64,000 nt of DNA, from assembly GCA_902796435.1 (NCBI GenBank), contig CADBPG010000005.1, forward strand, positions 148 to 64,147, read 5' to 3'. The notes under the pieces were generated by a model. It was not told where the DNA came from and made no database searches. It was given only the letters and a program-made list of their open reading frames with translations. The position numbers and the translations under genes were made by a program. Source of the stretch: an uncultured Eubacteriales bacterium. Lineage in GTDB: Bacteria > Bacillota > Clostridia > Lachnospirales > Bianqueaceae. Below are positions 12,893-21,626 of this stretch, one piece after another (the first letter of the stretch is position 1; each line of letters starts with the position of its first letter).

Positions 12893-13966
12893 TCAGTCGG
12901 CGAAGCAGATGCCCATGTCCTTCGCGGCGCGGACGATCTGATCATCCTTCGGGACGAATTTCGTGATCCCGGCGACTGCGGACAGCGGGTTATGGCCGAT
13001 CTTGCCATCGATCATGGCAACGGTCTGACCGTAATTCTCGTCACGGATCAGCTGGGCACCGTAGACACCGAACTGGGTGGCCAGCAGGCGGTCATAAGGA
13101 GAGGGGCTGCCGCCGCGCAGATAGTGGCCAGGCACGACCACGCGTGTTTCCAGGCCCGTGGCATTTTGGATCGTATCAGCCAGCATGAAAGAATTGGAGG
13201 AGAAGCCGGCTTCTTTGATGGCGGCTGCCCGTTCTTTTCTTTTCATTTTGGCAGCTTCCTTGGTGAAAGCACCTTCCGCAAGAGCGATGATGGTGAACCT
13301 GCGGTCCTTGCTGGTGCGCTTCTCGACGGCCTCGATGACCTTGTTGGGATCGTAAGGCATCTCCGGCAGAAGAACGACGTCCGCACCACCGGCAACACCG
13401 GAGTAGAGGGTGAGCCAGCCAGCTTTGTTGCCCATGATCTCGATGATCATGACGCGCTGATGGCTGTTGGCCGTGGTATGGATGCGGTCGATGACCTCGG
13501 TAGCCAGATCCACAGCTGTGTGGAAGCCGAAGGTAACGTCCGTGCCCCAGATATCGTTGTCGATGGTCTTGGGCAGGCCGATGACGTTCAGACCTTCTTC
13601 AGCCAGCAGATTGGCGGTTTTGTGGGTACCGTTGCCGCCCAGCGTGACCAGGCAGTCCAGACCCATTTTCTTGTAATTCTTTTTCATGGAAGCGACTTTA
13701 TCGACATTGTCCTCTTCGATCTTGCGCATGTTGCGGTAGGGGGTACGGCGGGTGCCAAGGATGGTGCCGCCCAAAGTCAGAAGTCCATGAAAATCAGAGG
13801 TTTTCATTTCTTTGTAATCGCCGTCGATCAGGCCTTGATAACCATCAGCGATACCTACGAATTCAACATCAAACATATTGTGGGCTGCCAGTGCGACACC
13901 GCGGATCGCCGCGTTCAGACCCGGGCAGTCACCGCCACTGGTCAGGATTCCGATTCTTCTTTTCAT
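12893..13966 (-). CDS. pfkA: ATP-dependent 6-phosphofructokinase
   Basis: Contains MKRRIGILTSGGDCPGLNAAIRG, LVTLGGNGT and PKTIDND motifs. The ATG at 13966 has an AGGAAAGGAA Shine-Dalgarno sequence upstream. Confidence 0.9.
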   Translation of the reverse strand: MKRRIGILTSGGDCPGLNAAIRGVALAAHNMFDVEFVGIADGYQGLIDGDYKEMKTSDFHGLLTLGGTILGTRRTPYRNMRKIEEDNVDKVASMKKNYKKMGLDCLVTLGGNGTHKTANLLAEEGLNVIGLPKTIDNDIWGTDVTFGFHTAVDLATEVIDRIHTTANSHQRVMIIEIMGNKAGWLTLYSGVAGGADVVLLPEMPYDPNKVIEAVEKRTSKDRRFTIIALAEGAFTKEAAKMKRKERAAAIKEAGFSSNSFMLADTIQNATGLETRVVVPGHYLRGGSPSPYDRLLATQFGVYGAQLIRDENYGQTVAMIDGKIGHNPLSAVAGITKFVPKDDQIVRAAKDMGICFAD

Positions 13967-14054
13967 AACAGCCAATTCCTTTCCTGTTAAATGTATCGTT
14001 GTCTTATTATACCTTTTTTTCGCAGGACTGGCTATACTTTTTTTATTACATTTA

Positions 14055-16122: not shown

Positions 16123-16123
16123 G

Positions 16124-16150
16124 AAAGTCCTCCATGATCGGAGGACTTTT
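16124..16150. terminator. Bidirectional terminator between the convergent response regulator and TIR genes
   Basis: A 10-bp perfect stem, AAAGTCCTCC / GGAGGACTTT, with T and A runs on both sides. It fills the 30-nt gap between the two stop codons. Confidence 0.7.
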
Positions 16151-16152
16151 CA

Positions 16153-19100
16153 CTATTTATTCAGTTCTTCTTCTGCCCAGGCCTTGAGGTCGGCACGGGA
16201 GTAGTGAGGGAATGTACATAGTTTTAAGGTGTCGTTGTTCCAGAAGTAAATCTCGCCGGTCGCAGGATCATAGCCTTTGAGGTTCTCCATTTCGGAAGTC
16301 AGGACCCAATGCGTCGTATCGAGCAGGATGCCATTTGAGATAGAATCATACCTTCCAAAGAAGACTTCCATGGAACCGTCCAGGCACATGGCATGCAGGT
16401 TCTGTACCGAATCCGTATACCGTCCCAGCTGGAAAGTAGAGCGGATCTCATCCTGGATCCATTGCACAGGTTCCGCATACTTGAGTTCGAGTGTCTCGAG
16501 ATCATAAATATCGAGACGGCCGGTCTGTGTCAAGACCAACAGGTACCGGTCATCATCAGAAAAGGAGATGCAGGCAACGCCGTCTTCTTTATAGGCTTCG
16601 GATATCAGTGTGGTCGAGCCATCCTTAAGATCGTACAGGCGCAACTGATTCTGCGCATACAGAGCCATTTGAGGGCTGGTATTGCCCAAGTTAAGCACAT
16701 AGCTCTGATCCGATGAAAGTTCCTCCTGGATCTTTATGGTCTCACCAGTAAGCACATTCAGACACGTAAATGACGGTGTTTCATCCAGGGAAAACGTACC
16801 GTCGCCGTGGTCTTCCCCAGACACGCCATAATTTGCGATCCATCCGGAAGGCGATGTTAAAAATGAGGAGGTTTCAAAATCGTAGTCACGAATCAAGAAT
16901 ACATCGCTGAGATGTCTGTCGATCCAGAAATGGAGCACCCTGGCACCGATATAGCAAGAGGTGTCATAAGAAACGATCTCACCAGAGTGCAGCCGGAAAT
17001 GATCGGAAGGATAGGATAAAAGACCCAGCTCCGTGAGATCCACTTCGCAATAGTGCTCGGACCTGCCGTTACTGATCGTATAGAGATCCGGACCGTAGAG
17101 TATGTGATCCTCATCGATCAGGAACGCACCTGTAGAAAGGTCTGTATTCCTGTAGCTCTTAGTTTCCCGGGTCTCTGTGTTGAGGAGCATGTAGGTGTGA
17201 TCACTGCCGCTGATCATCATCCAGGGCGTGTCAGGAGGGCAATCGATACTGCTGGCATATGAAAGTGTGTCCGCGCCGGCAAAGATCACCTGCGCGTGCG
17301 GGTCTGTCTCGTAATGTGTGGACAGGATCCTGCCCGGATCACTTTCCGATACCGTATAGTACTGTCCTTGGGAATTCTTGGAGGAAAGATGGTCGCCTGC
17401 GCGGACCGCAAGGCAGACCTGATCCTGGTCGAACCGCGTCAAGAAGTAGTCACTGATGACAGAGCCATCGGCTTCTGGGTCCTTGAAGGTCAGTTCGATC
17501 ACATATCCATTCGCAGTAGCCAGTTCGAGGGTGCGTTTCTCTTTGTTTTTCCAGGAAATGCTCCGGACGATCCCTTCATCCAGACCATAGCTCTTGAAAA
17601 GGAAGTTGTCACTTTTGCGGAGCAGAAAAAGACGATTGTCGCTGGAGATCAGATAGAAATCAAGACCGGACAGCATATGGAAGCGTGGATACTGTCCATA
17701 AAAGCCATAGGAGGTTCCGCTGTCCTTCGTGCTGATATCATGATTGATGGTGTTGATGTCAAAATCATAACCATCCTCACCTTTTATACACTGACATGCG
17801 ATGACGCCACCGTACTGGATGGAGTGGAAGGCGATAAAGGCCTGCGACGCATCATCTGAAACATCCATGCCGTAGAAGAACTCCTGCGGATATGAGGAAC
17901 GCCCCAGCTTGGCCTTTTCCAGTGTATCCAGATCGACCACATAGAACAGATGTACTTCTTGGTCCATATCATCTGAACCTTCTTCGATCCCCGTCGCGTG
18001 TACACTGAAGAGCAGCTGCTTGTCGTTCTCTGAAAAAGCGCCACCTTGTTCAAACAAACCATCATAGTTCGTGTCTTTATCGGAGTAGGCTTCATTCGTA
18101 AGACTGATCCTTCCGTATTCGGAACCGTCCTCTGTGCTAAGGAGGATCAGATACAGGGGCGCATCAAAGGAAAAGATGTCAGGATCGTCACTGATCCGGT
18201 CCATGATGGCAAACAAGCTGCCGTCATGGGAAAGGACCTGGAAAAATATACCATAATGATGTGTATAGGACCAAAGCTCGCTTCCATCCTTGATGGAGAG
18301 ACAACGGACCGTATCATTCGTTTTATACAGGATCTTCTCACCCAGATTCTGTGTGTAGATCTGGACCCAGGGATCGTTGGAAGTATGAGACCATAGAGCA
18401 ACGCCTGTGGCACGATCGACACAGGTGATCTTTCCGAAAGAATCGACAATGAGAAGCGAGGACGTATCATCTGTGATCTTAAGATCCACGATATCCTGCT
18501 GTTGTTCATAAAAGATCTGCGTGACAGGAGAGTGCAGCTGGTACGCCCCTAAGGCATCTGCCAGCAGCAGGTCCACATGGGGATCGACCAGGGAGGGATC
18601 CTCGATGTCCATGGCCTGCACGGCATCTGTCAAGGCTCCTTTACGGTCAAACGCCTCCAGTTTCGCCGTGCCGGACTGTACCAATGCTTCAGACATGCGC
18701 TTTTCCGAAAGGGCATTCTGTTCGATGATCTGTTCCTTCTGCGCATTGATCTGCCGGTTCTTCACCAGAACGACGAAAGTAAAGGCGGTCATCAACAGTG
18801 CGGTGCCGGCCACGACGCCCATGCGTATATTGGCTTTTCTGCGGCGGTCCCGCTGCCACAGTGTGTCGAAAGAGCAGCCCAGCATGGCGGCGCAGAGGCG
18901 GATGAATTCTTTCTTGTAGGGTTGCTTCAGGTTCGCGGCTAAAGGCTCTACATTACCGGTAATATTGCCTTCTTCGTCAAAGGTATGGAGCATATAAGGA
19001 GAGAAGGAATCCTGAGGCTCGCCCTCGGCAAGAACCGCAAGCAGCTGGTCCCGGTCATGGGTCTTCAGGAAATAACGGATCTCTTCCTCGCACCAATGGG

Positions 19101-19374
19101 ACTGGGGCAGATCCGGCGTACAGATCACGATCAGAAACCGGGCATGATCAAGCGCGTCCCGGATGCTTTCTGAAAGATTCGCTGATGCCGGCAGTTCGTC
19201 CTCATCACGGAAGACCTTGCCCAGCCGTTTTCCACCGACCTGGTCACGGTATTCCGCTGGCACAGTAAAGCTTTCGATGCTTCTCTGGATCTTCTTGGCA
19301 ACAGAGGAATCCAAAGGTTTGTGCCGATAGCTGATAAAGGCGATATATTCGTTGTTTTGCTGTATAGCAGGCAT
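16153..19374 (-). CDS. TIR domain-containing single-pass membrane protein with a large C-terminal beta-propeller-like repeat region (1073 aa)
   Basis: The N-terminal TIR signature is YIAFISYRHKP ... DEDELPASANLSESIRDALDHARFLIVICTPDLPQSHWCEEEIRYFL. A basic stretch (RDRRRKANIR) precedes one TM helix (MGVVAGTALLMTAFTFVVLV). The remaining roughly 870 aa carry recurring blade-like motifs (LSHDGSLFAI, FSENDKQLLFSV, FSDDDRYLLVLTQTGRLDIYDLETLE, DRATGVALWS, IKDGSELWS). Confidence 0.85.
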   Translation of the reverse strand: MPAIQQNNEYIAFISYRHKPLDSSVAKKIQRSIESFTVPAEYRDQVGGKRLGKVFRDEDELPASANLSESIRDALDHARFLIVICTPDLPQSHWCEEEIRYFLKTHDRDQLLAVLAEGEPQDSFSPYMLHTFDEEGNITGNVEPLAANLKQPYKKEFIRLCAAMLGCSFDTLWQRDRRRKANIRMGVVAGTALLMTAFTFVVLVKNRQINAQKEQIIEQNALSEKRMSEALVQSGTAKLEAFDRKGALTDAVQAMDIEDPSLVDPHVDLLLADALGAYQLHSPVTQIFYEQQQDIVDLKITDDTSSLLIVDSFGKITCVDRATGVALWSHTSNDPWVQIYTQNLGEKILYKTNDTVRCLSIKDGSELWSYTHHYGIFFQVLSHDGSLFAIMDRISDDPDIFSFDAPLYLILLSTEDGSEYGRISLTNEAYSDKDTNYDGLFEQGGAFSENDKQLLFSVHATGIEEGSDDMDQEVHLFYVVDLDTLEKAKLGRSSYPQEFFYGMDVSDDASQAFIAFHSIQYGGVIACQCIKGEDGYDFDINTINHDISTKDSGTSYGFYGQYPRFHMLSGLDFYLISSDNRLFLLRKSDNFLFKSYGLDEGIVRSISWKNKEKRTLELATANGYVIELTFKDPEADGSVISDYFLTRFDQDQVCLAVRAGDHLSSKNSQGQYYTVSESDPGRILSTHYETDPHAQVIFAGADTLSYASSIDCPPDTPWMMISGSDHTYMLLNTETRETKSYRNTDLSTGAFLIDEDHILYGPDLYTISNGRSEHYCEVDLTELGLLSYPSDHFRLHSGEIVSYDTSCYIGARVLHFWIDRHLSDVFLIRDYDFETSSFLTSPSGWIANYGVSGEDHGDGTFSLDETPSFTCLNVLTGETIKIQEELSSDQSYVLNLGNTSPQMALYAQNQLRLYDLKDGSTTLISEAYKEDGVACISFSDDDRYLLVLTQTGRLDIYDLETLELKYAEPVQWIQDEIRSTFQLGRYTDSVQNLHAMCLDGSMEVFFGRYDSISNGILLDTTHWVLTSEMENLKGYDPATGEIYFWNNDTLKLCTFPHYSRADLKAWAEEELNK

Positions 19375-19409
19375 GTTTTAAGCTGCCTTTCTAAAATAAG
19401 GACCGCTCT

Positions 19410-20288
19410 TTAGGAACGGCCCTTTTGTTTTTCTTCTAATTCCTTCAGATACTTTTCGTGTTGATCTTCTTTGAATTGTTTTCGTTTGCGGATCAGCTCG
19501 ATCTGCTGCATCCGATAATACCTGAGGAAGCGATAGATGAAGTAGACGGCACCGGCACCCAGCACCAGGGTGATGACCAGAGAGACCCAGTAGCCCAGAT
19601 AATGGTGCGTACCATTGATGATGCAGATCACCAGGCAATAGATGATCATGGAGAGCCAAAGGCAGACCTTACGATTGCGTTTGACTCCATAGAAGACCAG
19701 AAGGAGCACTGCCAGGATACATAAGAAAACGATGAACTGCGTAATGATGGTGAGCACACGTTCCAGACAAAGCATGTAGGGACCTTGTTCAGAGACGGAT
19801 TCGACCAACGCGTTGAGCAGTTCGACCGGATATTCTTTCGAAGCCAGCGTATCCAGTGTGCCCTTGTTGGCATGCTGCAGGATGGAACCGGAGGAGACCT
19901 GCATCGCGCTGTCCAGGATCATGGGCAGGGCCCAGTAACCGACCGCCATTGCGATGGTATCGTAGAGGGTCCATTTGCCGCGGCGCAGCGTCTTGGTGAT
20001 GAACCAGGCAAGGGGCGGCAGCACCAGAGCGGCCAGCAAAGCCTCAAGGAAAAGCCCCAGAGAGACCTGTTTCAGGAAGAAGGATTCATCCCCGGCTATA
20101 AGACGGATGATAGTATAAACGTTGTTGATGACAACGTAATTTACGATGAAATAGGCGGCCAGTCCGCAGATGATGGACGAAAAGGCAAAAGTGTGTCTGC
20201 GGCGCAGAAAAAAGAGGATCAGCAGAGGGAGCATCAGCTCCAGAGCGCCGACCACGTATAAAGTAATGATCGTAAATTGAGGAACCAT
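19410..20288 (-). CDS. Multi-pass integral membrane protein of unknown function, with a possible distant YhfC-like layout
   Basis: About 7 hydrophobic segments and a charged, coiled C-terminal tail (RKRKQFKEDQHEKYLKELEEKQKGRS). The AGGAGAA Shine-Dalgarno sequence precedes ATGTCCATG, so the start is 20294 or 20288. It lies 35 nt upstream of the TIR gene on the same strand. Confidence 0.7.
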   Translation of the reverse strand: MVPQFTIITLYVVGALELMLPLLILFFLRRRHTFAFSSIICGLAAYFIVNYVVINNVYTIIRLIAGDESFFLKQVSLGLFLEALLAALVLPPLAWFITKTLRRGKWTLYDTIAMAVGYWALPMILDSAMQVSSGSILQHANKGTLDTLASKEYPVELLNALVESVSEQGPYMLCLERVLTIITQFIVFLCILAVLLLVFYGVKRNRKVCLWLSMIIYCLVICIINGTHHYLGYWVSLVITLVLGAGAVYFIYRFLRYYRMQQIELIRKRKQFKEDQHEKYLKELEEKQKGRS

Positions 20289-20318
20289 GGACATTTCTCC
20301 TAAAAAAAGACTATGAAT

Positions 20319-20347
20319 ATTATACACTTAAAGCCTGCTTTTGTGAA
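20319..20347 (-). promoter_or_regulatory. Sigma-A-like promoter of the membrane-protein/TIR cassette
   Basis: On the minus strand, TTCACA - 17 nt - TATAAT, ending about 25-30 nt upstream of the first gene's start codon. Confidence 0.5.
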
Positions 20348-20459: not shown

Positions 20460-21626
20460 ATGCACAATTTAAAGATCAGTGAAGCAAAACCCATTGCAAA
20501 ACTGGCACTCATGGCCATGCCCAGTGCTACAGAATTAGCCGAAAAGGTAGACTTCCATCTGCGGAGGCTCTATAAGGATCTGTACGGAGAAGAGCAGGAA
20601 TCCTTCCTGGTCGAGGTTACGTGCCCCAGGTTCCAGAGTGGTGACGGAAAAGCTTTGATCCAGCAGTCCGTACGTGGTCTGGACTTGTTCCTTCTTACAG
20701 ATGTCGGAAACTATAATTTACAATATAAAATGTTCGGACAGGTAGTGCCCATGTCCCCGGACGATCATTACGCGGACCTGAAGCGTGCCATCGGCGCCTG
20801 CATGCGCAAGCCACACCGTATGACGGTCATCATGCCCATGCTGTATGGCGGACGTCAGCACCGCCGCAGCTACCGTGAATCCCTGGACTGCGCCATGGCT
20901 CTGCAGGAGCTGGACGCTCTGGGCGTATCCGCGATCACCACATTCGACGCACATGATCCGCGCGTACAGAATGCGATCCCGAACTCGACCTTTGACAACA
21001 TCATGCCGCATTACCAGACCATGAAGGCGCTGGTACGCAACGTGCCGGATATCATCTTCGATAAAGACCATCTGATGGTCGTCAGCCCGGATGAAGGCGC
21101 CATGGCCCGTAACGTGTTCTATGCATCTCTGCTGGGTCTGGATCTGGGTATGTACTACAAACGTCGTGATTATTCCCGCATCGTCAACGGACGCAACCCC
21201 ATCGTCGCGCACGAGTTCCTGGGCAATAATGTTGAAGGCAAGGACGTGTTCGTCTACGACGATATGATCGCTTCCGGTGAGTCCATGCTGGATCTGGCCA
21301 AAGACATGCACAGCCGTGGTGCCAAGCGTATTTTCGCCGCCTGCACCTTCGGTCTGTTCACGGAAGGTATCGACAAATTCCAGCAGGCGTACGAGCAGGG
21401 CTATCTGAACGGTGTCCTTTCTACCAACCTGACATACCGTCGTCCGGAACTGCTGGATGCACCCTGGTATTATGAAGTCGACTGCTCCAAATATATCGCA
21501 TACTACATCGCTTCTCTGAACCACGACATCTCCGTCAGCTCCATGCTGGATCCGGTCGCCAAGATCCAGGCACTCATGGAAAAGCATGAGAAAGAGCAGG
21601 CACAGCAGCTGCGCATCGAAGAATAA
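20460..21626 (+). CDS. prs: Ribose-phosphate pyrophosphokinase (PRPP synthetase), long about 390-aa form
   Basis: The N-terminal domain (ATELAEKV..., PRFQSGDGKA) and the PRPP-binding loop VFVYDDMIASGESM are present. The C-terminal extension is longer than in classical roughly 315-aa Prs. Confidence 0.8.
   Translation: MHNLKISEAKPIAKLALMAMPSATELAEKVDFHLRRLYKDLYGEEQESFLVEVTCPRFQSGDGKALIQQSVRGLDLFLLTDVGNYNLQYKMFGQVVPMSPDDHYADLKRAIGACMRKPHRMTVIMPMLYGGRQHRRSYRESLDCAMALQELDALGVSAITTFDAHDPRVQNAIPNSTFDNIMPHYQTMKALVRNVPDIIFDKDHLMVVSPDEGAMARNVFYASLLGLDLGMYYKRRDYSRIVNGRNPIVAHEFLGNNVEGKDVFVYDDMIASGESMLDLAKDMHSRGAKRIFAACTFGLFTEGIDKFQQAYEQGYLNGVLSTNLTYRRPELLDAPWYYEVDCSKYIAYYIASLNHDISVSSMLDPVAKIQALMEKHEKEQAQQLRIEE

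Follow-up and report, generated by a model that had tools for sequence, protein, structure and literature searches.

We analyzed a gene on the minus strand of a 64,000-nucleotide stretch of DNA (hereafter the window) from the chromosome of an uncultured Eubacteriales bacterium, one of the Clostridia of gut or rumen (contig CADBPG010000005.1). It is an open reading frame (ORF) at 16153..19374 that encodes 1073 amino acids (aa) followed by a stop codon. The ORF list, the translation and the clusters of homologues mark it as complete and real, at the position given in an earlier reading of the letters (the original prediction). Its ATG is the earliest start codon possible downstream of an in-frame stop, so that a signal peptide or another N-terminal extension is impossible, and in alignments M1 of its N-terminus (MPAIQQNNEYIAFISY) is in register with the N-termini of homologues. 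The product is predicted to consist of a cytoplasmic TIR domain, one transmembrane (TM) helix, an extracytoplasmic helical stalk and tandem beta-propellers. This architecture, with its TIR fold, single TM helix, lack of a signal peptide, positive-inside charge bias and a relative with choline-binding repeats, was supported by every test, topology and structure being predictions. Profile matches of the whole protein in PADLOC and NCBIfam were weak and confined to the TIR level.

TIR domain, membrane helix and propellers

The TIR domain (aa 8-165; 18880..19353, minus strand) was identified by the Pfam families TIR_2 (E=1.6e-9; 38.7 bits, cut-off 28) and ThsB_TIR (26.3 bits, cut-off 21.2), by its predicted fold and by identity to homologues. 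An AlphaFold2 (AF2) model of the N-terminal 245 residues, built from an alignment of 70 sequences, reached a pLDDT of 84.4 and revealed an alternating beta-alpha (flavodoxin-like) fold across aa 10-165. Its best Foldseek matches in the PDB were all TIR domains, namely those of SARM1, TRAM, TLR1, MyD88, RPP1, ThsB and AbTir. The TIR identity originally proposed for aa 8-135 therefore stands, while the fold extends further than that interval.

In a PDB sequence search, the query QSHWCEEEI aligned with SSTWCLEEL of the Roq1 TIR domain, placing E98 (motif W94-C-E-E-E98; codon at 19081..19083, minus strand) opposite the second glutamate of WCLEEL. E98, the putative catalytic glutamate, and many other TIR residues are invariant in 121 sequences. 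It is well established that the catalytic glutamate of enzymatic TIR domains lies four residues after a conserved tryptophan, as in SARM1 E642 and RUN1 E100 (PMC7282519). Judged from its sequence, the protein is a true member of the TIR superfamily of the enzymatic type, with NADase activity predicted.

A basic juxtamembrane stretch, RDRRRKANIR (aa 175-184; 18823..18852, minus strand), lies directly N-terminal to the membrane helix and is kept as WQRxRRxxxNR family-wide. The single TM helix (aa 185-205; 18760..18822, minus strand) was assigned from hydropathy, conservation and an AF2 helix. A Kyte-Doolittle scan gave a sole peak above 1.6, at aa 183-206 (maximum 2.23), confirming the earlier claim that a cluster of six basic residues precedes the only strong hydrophobic helix, and AF2 rendered aa 169-241, from the basic stretch through the TM segment into the stalk, as one unbroken helix. 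Exactly one hydrophobic segment was found at the equivalent position in 116 of 119 homologues, indicating that the helix is not a chance feature. The same single segment recurs in nearly all of 79 genome loci, including those of the Coriobacteriaceae and one member of the Pirellulaceae.

Positive charges are distributed unevenly around this helix. The window protein has six K/R residues in RDRRRKANIR versus two in the 15 residues C-terminal of the helix, and the mean number of K and R in the 15 flanking residues was 5.1 on the N side versus 2.6 on the C side among the 119 homologues. A relative from an Oribacterium metagenome-assembled genome (MAG), encoded at L041:7893-12824 and 1643 aa long, carries Choline_bind_3 repeats C-terminal to its propellers (E=1.7e-18). 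Choline-binding repeats anchor proteins to the Gram-positive wall, so the C-terminal end of the L041 protein is expected to be outside. NAD+, in turn, is a cytoplasmic substrate. An N-in, C-out orientation is thus very likely on these sequence features, and the placement of the TIR domain inside by the positive-inside rule, as predicted earlier, is supported by the charge bias over 119 homologues, the lack of a signal peptide and the wall repeats of L041. Within the sensor model that we favour below, we slightly incline to the view that the gene product is a type II (N-in, C-out) single-pass membrane receptor.

Outside the membrane, a helical stalk (aa 206-275; 18550..18759, minus strand) with AF2 helices at ectodomain residues 2-36, 40-50 and 63-71 and with invariant residues N206, I209 and S228 is followed by tandem beta-propellers (aa 282-1055; 16210..18531, minus strand), assigned by AF2, Foldseek and Pfam. 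A conserved C-terminal helix (aa 1060-1072; 16159..16197, minus strand; AF2 helix at ectodomain residues 856-868), in which L1063 and A1067 are nearly invariant, closes the protein. The AF2 model of aa 205-1073, based on an alignment of 113 sequences, reached a pLDDT of 91.2 and a pTM of 0.88. It comprises a long helix leading out of the membrane, two short helices, about 68 beta strands and the C-terminal helix; the strands make up about 17 four-stranded blades, and are therefore enough for two propellers. In the PDB, Foldseek matched the ectodomain to tandem double-propeller WD40 proteins (EML-like, UTP/PWP2 and the Apaf-1 WD region) with E values of about 1e-19 and 8-13% identity. Pfam PQQ_2 scored marginally over its cut-off at aa 305-373, and several WD40-type Pfam families gave weak matches at aa 890-965. 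An outside part of about 870 aa with roughly two propellers and a juxtamembrane helical stretch, as originally described, was thus borne out by AF2 and Foldseek. The outcomes named at the outset as incompatible with such a protein did not appear: the N-terminus models as a TIR fold, the helix is present, and no enzyme or adhesin was found among the 50 top PDB matches listed for the ectodomain.

We also considered two reversed arrangements. In one, a cytoplasmic event is detected by the TIR domain, with the propellers acting as an effector outside; in the other, the orientation is inverted, so that the propellers face the cytoplasm and the TIR domain the exterior. Eukaryotic WD40-type propellers are mostly cytoplasmic, the top Foldseek matches are eukaryotic WD40 proteins, and the topology is predicted rather than measured, all of which favour the inverted form. 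However, translocation of a folded 184-aa N-terminal domain without a signal peptide would be unusual, and the positive-inside bias opposes it. It is established that NAD+ is in the cytoplasm, the choline-binding repeats of L041 put the C-terminal end outside, and the hypervariability described below is limited to the C-terminal part, which fits surface exposure. As for the inside-out form, the propellers resemble no effector-like enzyme among the 50 top Foldseek matches listed. We regard such reversals as highly improbable.

A conserved TIR domain and a hypervariable ectodomain

From the membrane outward, the protein varies sharply between strains. We delimited a hypervariable cassette comprising the TM helix, the stalk and the propellers (16150..18860, minus strand) by nucleotide identity, protein alignment and dN/dS, using metagenome-derived contigs with replicated alleles. 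The contigs that encode proteins P0004 (L167) and P0005 (L165) are conspecific with the window, having the same synteny and flanks of 93-100% nucleotide identity. The TIR domains of both proteins are 100% identical to that of the window protein, and their propellers are 35-54% identical to it when compared domain by domain. A sliding comparison of the window with L165 gave 99-100% nucleotide identity in the YhfC-like gene upstream and in TIR codons 1-142, 87% in codons 142-192, 56-70% in codons 192-642, 41-61% in codons 642-1042, and again 96-98% in the response-regulator gene beyond. Summarized over the conspecific strains, nucleotide identity is 96-100% in the flanks and the TIR domain and drops to 40-65% from around codon 171 onward; for the L165 and L167 loci, it is 41-70% between about codon 192 and the stop. 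At the protein level, aa 1-170 of the window protein and its conspecific counterpart are identical, the first difference being T171A, and overall identity is 54%. Between P0004 and P0005, identity is 84%, and only two substitutions precede residue 240.

Nei-Gojobori estimates of synonymous (dS) and nonsynonymous (dN) divergence and their ratio (omega) were obtained for L165 versus L167. Seven flanking genes had dS of 0.10-0.27, dN of 0.001-0.007 and omega of 0.007-0.04. The TIR domain was at dS 0.094 with dN and omega of 0, propeller 1 at dS 0.58, dN 0.079 and omega 0.14, and propeller 2 at dS 0.63, dN 0.147 and omega 0.23. Relative to the flanks, dS of the ectodomain is thus raised 3-6-fold and dN at least 11-fold, up to about 150-fold. 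Because ectodomain dS exceeds flank dS, the part from the membrane outward coalesces much earlier than the surrounding genome, which indicates that the ectodomain alleles were imported or long maintained. The cytoplasmic TIR domain is frozen under extreme purifying selection, and the ectodomain is under much weaker or diversifying constraint. The region from the TM helix outward is an allelic cassette that is exchanged or maintained between strains of one species.

The allele clusters comprise 5, 6 and 1 members, drawn from separate assemblies (NCBI, ENA and Logan), and synteny was identical in every contig fetched. Since the alleles are replicated in separate assemblies with the same synteny, they are not assembly artefacts. 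Switching from local silent cassettes was rejected: tblastn of the window allele and three others against the window matched the gene itself only. A search for conspecific alleles with the TIR domain alone returned short fragments only and missed the known full-length alleles.

The same pattern extends beyond one species. Nine further protein pairs combine a TIR identity of at least 93% with an ectodomain identity below 65%, and per-domain identity to distant homologues is 59-72% for the TIR domain versus 20-32% for the propellers. By sequence comparison, a conserved TIR domain with a variable ectodomain is general in the family. Tandem TIR-TM-propeller paralogues occur at L009:3752-10470, L047:7792-14651, L048, L049 and L052. 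Those of L009 (P0045 and P0055) are 99.4% identical in the TIR domain versus 35% in the ectodomain, suggesting gene conversion, or a recent duplication followed by ectodomain replacement.

A conserved signaller joined to a variable sensor is typical of immune receptors. A hypervariable exposed part with a conserved hidden part is also found in many surface antigens and phage receptors, and the protein might instead be a wall-associated surface scaffold or adhesin. The TIR domain would then be a cytoplasmic anchor or oligomerization module, and the variability would have arisen through evasion of host antibodies or of phages for which the protein is a receptor. The choline-binding wall repeats of L041, the frequent role of PQQ/BamB-like propellers as scaffolds and a core housekeeping context without defence genes would suit this explanation. 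However, the TIR domain is the best-conserved part of the protein, with dN = 0 between strains and 59-72% identity across families, and the invariance of the catalytic glutamate and of many other residues in 121 sequences exceeds the needs of a passive anchor. Recurrent operons of relatives with a Rossmann-motif channel and with a DHH phosphoesterase, which we turn to below, further point to a nucleotide output. We consider a scaffold unlikely and prefer a receptor that signals through its TIR domain.

Relatives, candidate partners and a proposed sensor model

A word-indexed search returned 364 homologue clusters, nearly all of them full-length (about 1060-1150 aa) with TIR_2 and propeller families; the few that are named are labelled only "TIR domain-containing protein". 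An exhaustive search of 1.84 billion representatives gave 1,783 proteins at E<=1e-30 (about 1,800 clusters at 50% identity), and a scan of one genome per species gave 179 relatives. Hosts are mostly rumen and gut Lachnospiraceae, other Clostridia, Solobacterium/Erysipelotrichaceae, Christensenellaceae and Oscillospiraceae. Members from the Coriobacteriaceae are more distant, with an alignment limited to the TIR-TM-stalk module. Thus the TIR-TM-propeller family belongs mainly to gut and rumen Bacillota and Coriobacteriia, and its abundance in gut and rumen Clostridia stands in contrast to its generic label. Several MAGs encode two or three paralogues. The cultured Lachnospiraceae strains MC2017 and KH1P17 encode shorter relatives of about 590 aa, in which the TIR domain and TM helix are followed by about 350-380 further residues; these strains are possible entry points for experiments. 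No relatives were found in the viral contigs of IMG/VR. In literature searches, nothing specific emerged on the TIR-TM-propeller architecture or on channels with RyR domains in connection with TIR proteins or defence, and TIR-TM-propeller proteins are described neither in an eLife paper on bacterial Death and TRADD-N domains nor in a TIR survey.

Genes in 84 loci were called with a codon-usage score trained per locus, a rough procedure that agreed with database calls where these were available. Only one neighbour is strongly recurrent, a pair of genes that we term chanL and chanS. The chanL product (about 625 aa) is polytopic, without a Pfam match, and has a ryanodine receptor (RyR)-like C-terminus. 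In that of chanS (about 517 aa), the pore resembles KcsA (E=2e-14) and its TTVGYGD filter is invariant; a Rossmann-like motif, IVIIGxGxYA (GxGxxA), is conserved, and the C-terminus carries a RyR repeat with matches to ryanodine receptors of eukaryotes. The chanL, chanS and TIR genes overlap by 4 nucleotides (nt), forming translationally coupled operons in the order chanL-chanS-TIR or TIR-chanL-chanS, and a convergent arrangement is also seen. Three-gene operons are present at L014:4565-11219 and at L032, L002, L038, L009, L017 and L020. Of 36 full-length representative loci, 14 have the channel next to the TIR gene, as do four loci truncated by contig ends, and a TIR gene is present at 5 of 21 metagenomic chanS loci.

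Other neighbours are less frequent. A gene for a DHH/DHHA1 phosphoesterase lies directly upstream in five loci, L061 (MC2017), L057 (KH1P17), L059, L064 and L068, and its product might degrade a TIR-made nucleotide. In Lachnospiraceae bacterium MC2017 (L061:6421-9731), this gene encodes 503 aa and precedes the TIR-TM protein of about 590 aa. Microbial-type PARG catalytic domains were found in 2 of the 122 neighbours scanned and, as ADP-ribose-processing enzymes, might be relevant to TIR products. Known defence genes among these 122 neighbours amounted to scattered single matches. The sole clear defence-type neighbour examined in detail, a divergent gene at L003:4787-7843 (minus strand), encodes a 1018-aa TIR-STAND (NPHP3_N/AAA_16)-TPR protein of the Avs/NLR-like kind.

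We favour, at a probability of roughly 55%, an outside-in sensor, in which an external signal turns on the cytoplasmic TIR domain as an NADase or signal generator; its function, ligand and output are what we infer. The variable external ligand of the propellers would be met in the wall zone of the Gram-positive cell and could come from a phage or a competitor, from the wall itself as a fragment, or from the host or a commensal. Once bound, it would shift the stalk and TM helices to another oligomeric state and so bring the TIR domains together. Self-association is the activation route of characterized TIR enzymes, including SARM1 and plant and prokaryotic TIRs (PMC7282519). The activated domain would cleave NAD+, leading to NAD+ depletion or to an ADP-ribose-derived signal. 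For many relatives, the likely receiver of this signal would be the adjacent KcsA-like K+ channel with its Rossmann-like nucleotide-binding domain and RyR repeat; in some others, an adjacent DHH/DHHA1 phosphoesterase or PARG might remove the signal. In the window's clade, the output would be either NAD+ depletion itself or an effector encoded elsewhere. As a whole, the more specific proposal is tentative and, in our view, rather doubtful: a bacterial outside-in TIR receptor whose hypervariable propellers detect a phage, a competitor, wall damage or a partner, and whose TIR product gates a K+ channel through its Rossmann-like and RyR parts in many lineages.

Several observations weigh against the sensor model. 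The channel link is partial in both directions, and several channel-pair loci with long flanks have no TIR gene. The window itself has no channel homologue by tblastn of six channel proteins (best E=0.26), which also disposes of a K+ channel pair elsewhere in its 64 kb. No channel, DHH or PARG gene lies near the TIR gene in the window's clade, and the closest sister loci of this clade in a rough neighbour-joining tree likewise lack the channel. The TIR-TM-propeller locus is core and syntenic, sits among housekeeping genes, outside any defence island, and is absent from the viral contigs of IMG/VR, which is atypical for anti-phage systems. The ectodomain omega of 0.14-0.23 is below 1 and signifies old or imported alleles with weaker constraint, not proven positive selection. 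NADase activity, ligand and oligomerization are all steps that we infer, and the predicted topology draws on hydropathy, charge bias and domain logic.

The idea of a surface-sensing signalling module, put forward originally with phage sensing as one example, thus gains indirect support from the contrast between a hypervariable outside part and a frozen TIR domain and from the relatives' operons with a candidate nucleotide-gated K+ channel, but its defence or phage link does not. No enrichment near defence islands appeared: the window is housekeeping, defence matches among the 122 neighbours are scattered, and no relatives were found in IMG/VR. A phage or mobile-element origin was rejected for this absence from IMG/VR and for the conserved housekeeping synteny. 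The core, non-island position of the gene speaks against a typical mobile defence system, and the pattern of alleles speaks for a cell-surface interaction that is antagonistic or frequency-dependent. Candidate roles are phage defence, conflict between bacteria, and the sensing of wall damage or of a host.

Like Toll-like receptors (TLRs) and IL-1 receptors, the protein is predicted to cross the membrane once, with a large ectodomain built from repeats on the outer side and its TIR domain on the cytoplasmic side, and its ectodomain evolves faster than its TIR domain. TLRs, however, are type I proteins with a signal peptide, N-terminal leucine-rich repeats (LRRs) and a C-terminal TIR domain, whereas the window protein is type II, with an N-terminal TIR domain and C-terminal tandem propellers. 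No LRR was matched by Pfam in the window protein, and its ectodomain models as propellers. Moreover, the TIR domains of TLRs are adaptor-recruiting scaffolds, whereas the window TIR domain retains the catalytic glutamate of enzymatic TIRs. The TLR-like topology proposed originally therefore holds, as a prediction, for one TM helix between an ectodomain and a cytoplasmic TIR domain, but not for an LRR ectodomain or a type I orientation. Lacking LRRs and having the opposite orientation, the protein is not a member of the TLR family, and the likeness is an analogy only, of convergent topology rather than shared descent of the architecture.

With SARM1, Roq1, RPP1, RUN1, ThsB, AbTir, TIR-STING and SpbK, the window protein shares the TIR fold and the FISYR...WxxxE signature with its conserved glutamate. 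It would also share with them the principle that TIR self-association is controlled by a sensor or regulatory domain, and plant NLRs likewise combine a conserved TIR domain with a variable sensor. These enzymes are cytosolic and respond to intracellular cues, whereas the putative sensor here is outside the membrane. No ThsA, STAND NTPase, STING or SAVED partner was found in the window with Pfam or PADLOC. Thoeris has an adjacent ThsA-type effector (SIR2 or Macro/SLOG), whereas the neighbours here are YhfC-like, a LytTR pair, Prs-like and LexA. PADLOC matched no Thoeris model anywhere in the window, and its matches to the TIR protein were weak (SAVED_TIR, 8.1e-7; PDC-S66, 1.7e-3) and did not include the ThsB model. 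Because it has neither a ThsA partner nor a ThsB model match, the locus is not a Thoeris system; other catalogued defence systems were rejected as well, given weak TIR-level matches and no partner genes in the window.

In bacterial receptor Ser/Thr kinases with extracellular propeller sensors, of the Mycobacterium tuberculosis PknD type, a cytoplasmic signalling domain at the N-terminus is joined by a single TM helix to an extracytoplasmic beta-propeller at the C-terminus. The layout is the same, but the window protein has a TIR domain in place of a Hanks-type kinase and two propellers instead of one; no kinase family was found among its Pfam matches. Bacterial TIR systems with transmembrane components have been reported in E. 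coli, and TIR active-site residues are required for their function (PMC11350192). This corrects the background given earlier, that characterized bacterial TIR defence proteins are soluble, although none of the reported systems has the present architecture. No large extracytoplasmic sensor was reported for the E. coli systems, which are candidate defence loci, whereas the window gene is core and syntenic. Ion channels activated by 2',3'-cGAMP exemplify nucleotide-gated membrane effectors of the CBASS/Pycsar type (PMC10402079). The 14 of 36 relatives with the channel pair resemble these systems in an implied enzyme-made nucleotide signal and an ion channel effector. They differ in that the signal would come from a TIR domain instead of a CD-NTase or cyclase and the effector would be a KcsA-like K+ pore with Rossmann-like and RyR parts, whose gating is presumed and which is absent from the window.

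To our knowledge, all characterized prokaryotic TIR proteins sense intracellular events. If a TIR enzyme is indeed tied to a large extracellular sensor that diversifies rapidly, TIR signalling would reach to the cell surface, and bacteria would have a functional analogue of Toll-like or receptor-like immune receptors. Should the more specific proposal hold, the family would be the first bacterial surface pattern-recognition receptor to signal through a TIR domain, and its pairing of a TIR-made nucleotide with an RyR-domain channel would be reminiscent of eukaryotic cyclic ADP-ribose (cADPR)/ryanodine-receptor signalling. The sharp boundary between the frozen TIR domain and the exchangeable ectodomain provides a natural set of specificity variants, and the channel, DHH and PARG neighbours of relatives are testable candidates for a downstream pathway.

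Gene neighbourhood in the window

The gene order in the window is ppk, GNAT, PFK, a GHKL histidine kinase and LytTR regulator, TIR, YhfC-like, Prs-like, LexA, LysM, L21/L27 and Obg. The GHKL/LytTR two-component genes are convergent with the TIR gene, and the YhfC-like gene is upstream and co-directional. A Pfam and PADLOC sweep of 59 window genes identified IlvD, Ppk, MreB, RodA, PBP, Obg, RNase E/G and similar proteins, the PADLOC matches being generic only. The same order was found in the orthologous loci L001 and L080 (77-78% nucleotide identity) and in the conspecific contigs, together representing three species-level lineages. This shared order marks the TIR gene as a stable core gene of the lineage and not as island cargo.

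Two hairpins flank the TIR gene. One with an 11-bp stem, at 16123..16150 between the convergent response-regulator and TIR genes, is terminator-like and is likely a bidirectional terminator. The other (19393..19424, minus strand) lies between the YhfC-like gene and the TIR ATG and is stable, with an 11-bp stem and a minimum free energy of -17.3 kcal/mol (z = -4.5 versus shuffles). It is followed by a short U run (AUUUUA), overlaps the stop codon of the YhfC-like gene and ends about 20 nt before the TIR ATG. Because of this position, it could reduce read-through into the TIR gene, perhaps restricting TIR expression as an attenuator or a leaky terminator.

The YhfC-like gene (19410..20327, minus strand) directly upstream encodes a polytopic membrane protein with a weak Pfam YhfC match and occupies the same position in L001, L080, L165, L167 and L168. 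Its presence raises the question of whether the TIR domain is activated by regulated proteolysis, in which an external signal would lead to cleavage at or near the TM helix, possibly by the YhfC-like neighbour, and the freed TIR domain would self-associate. In favour of this are the adjacent, co-directional YhfC-family gene in the window's clade and a strong YhfC gene 4 nt downstream of a distant family member in L082, in the opposite gene order; YhfC was found in 2 of the 122 neighbours scanned. There is also the precedent of an amoebal membrane-tethered TIR protein that is toxic once its tether is removed, for which the authors suggested proteolytic release (PMC13142454). However, none of the CPBP-type protease motifs EExxxR, FxxxH and HxxxN was found in the window's YhfC-like protein, which, together with the weak Pfam match, weakens its candidacy as an active intramembrane protease. 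The stable hairpin between the two genes and the lack of a YhfC neighbour in most family members also stand against this route. We judge activation by proteolysis improbable, and retain ligand-driven association of intact receptors as the favoured model.

Two genes upstream of the TIR gene, throughout the clade, lies a gene for a ribose-phosphate pyrophosphokinase-like (Prs-like) protein, at 20460-21626 on the plus strand in the window. It encodes 388 aa, and a typical Prs is shorter, at about 315 aa. Its Prs domain E-values of 8.6e-14 are far weaker than the 2e-42 of the Prs beside another family member, and a Prs gene also flanks the unrelated family member L018. Phosphoribosyl pyrophosphate (PRPP) feeds NAD+ salvage; the link between the Prs-like and TIR genes may be a coincidence.

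Elsewhere in the window, two long ORFs overlap on opposite strands, at 12893-13975 (minus) and 12992-13990 (plus). By synteny with L080 and L165, the minus-strand ORF is taken to be a real gene, that of a phosphofructokinase, and the 332-aa plus-strand ORF, without a Pfam match, is probably a shadow ORF.

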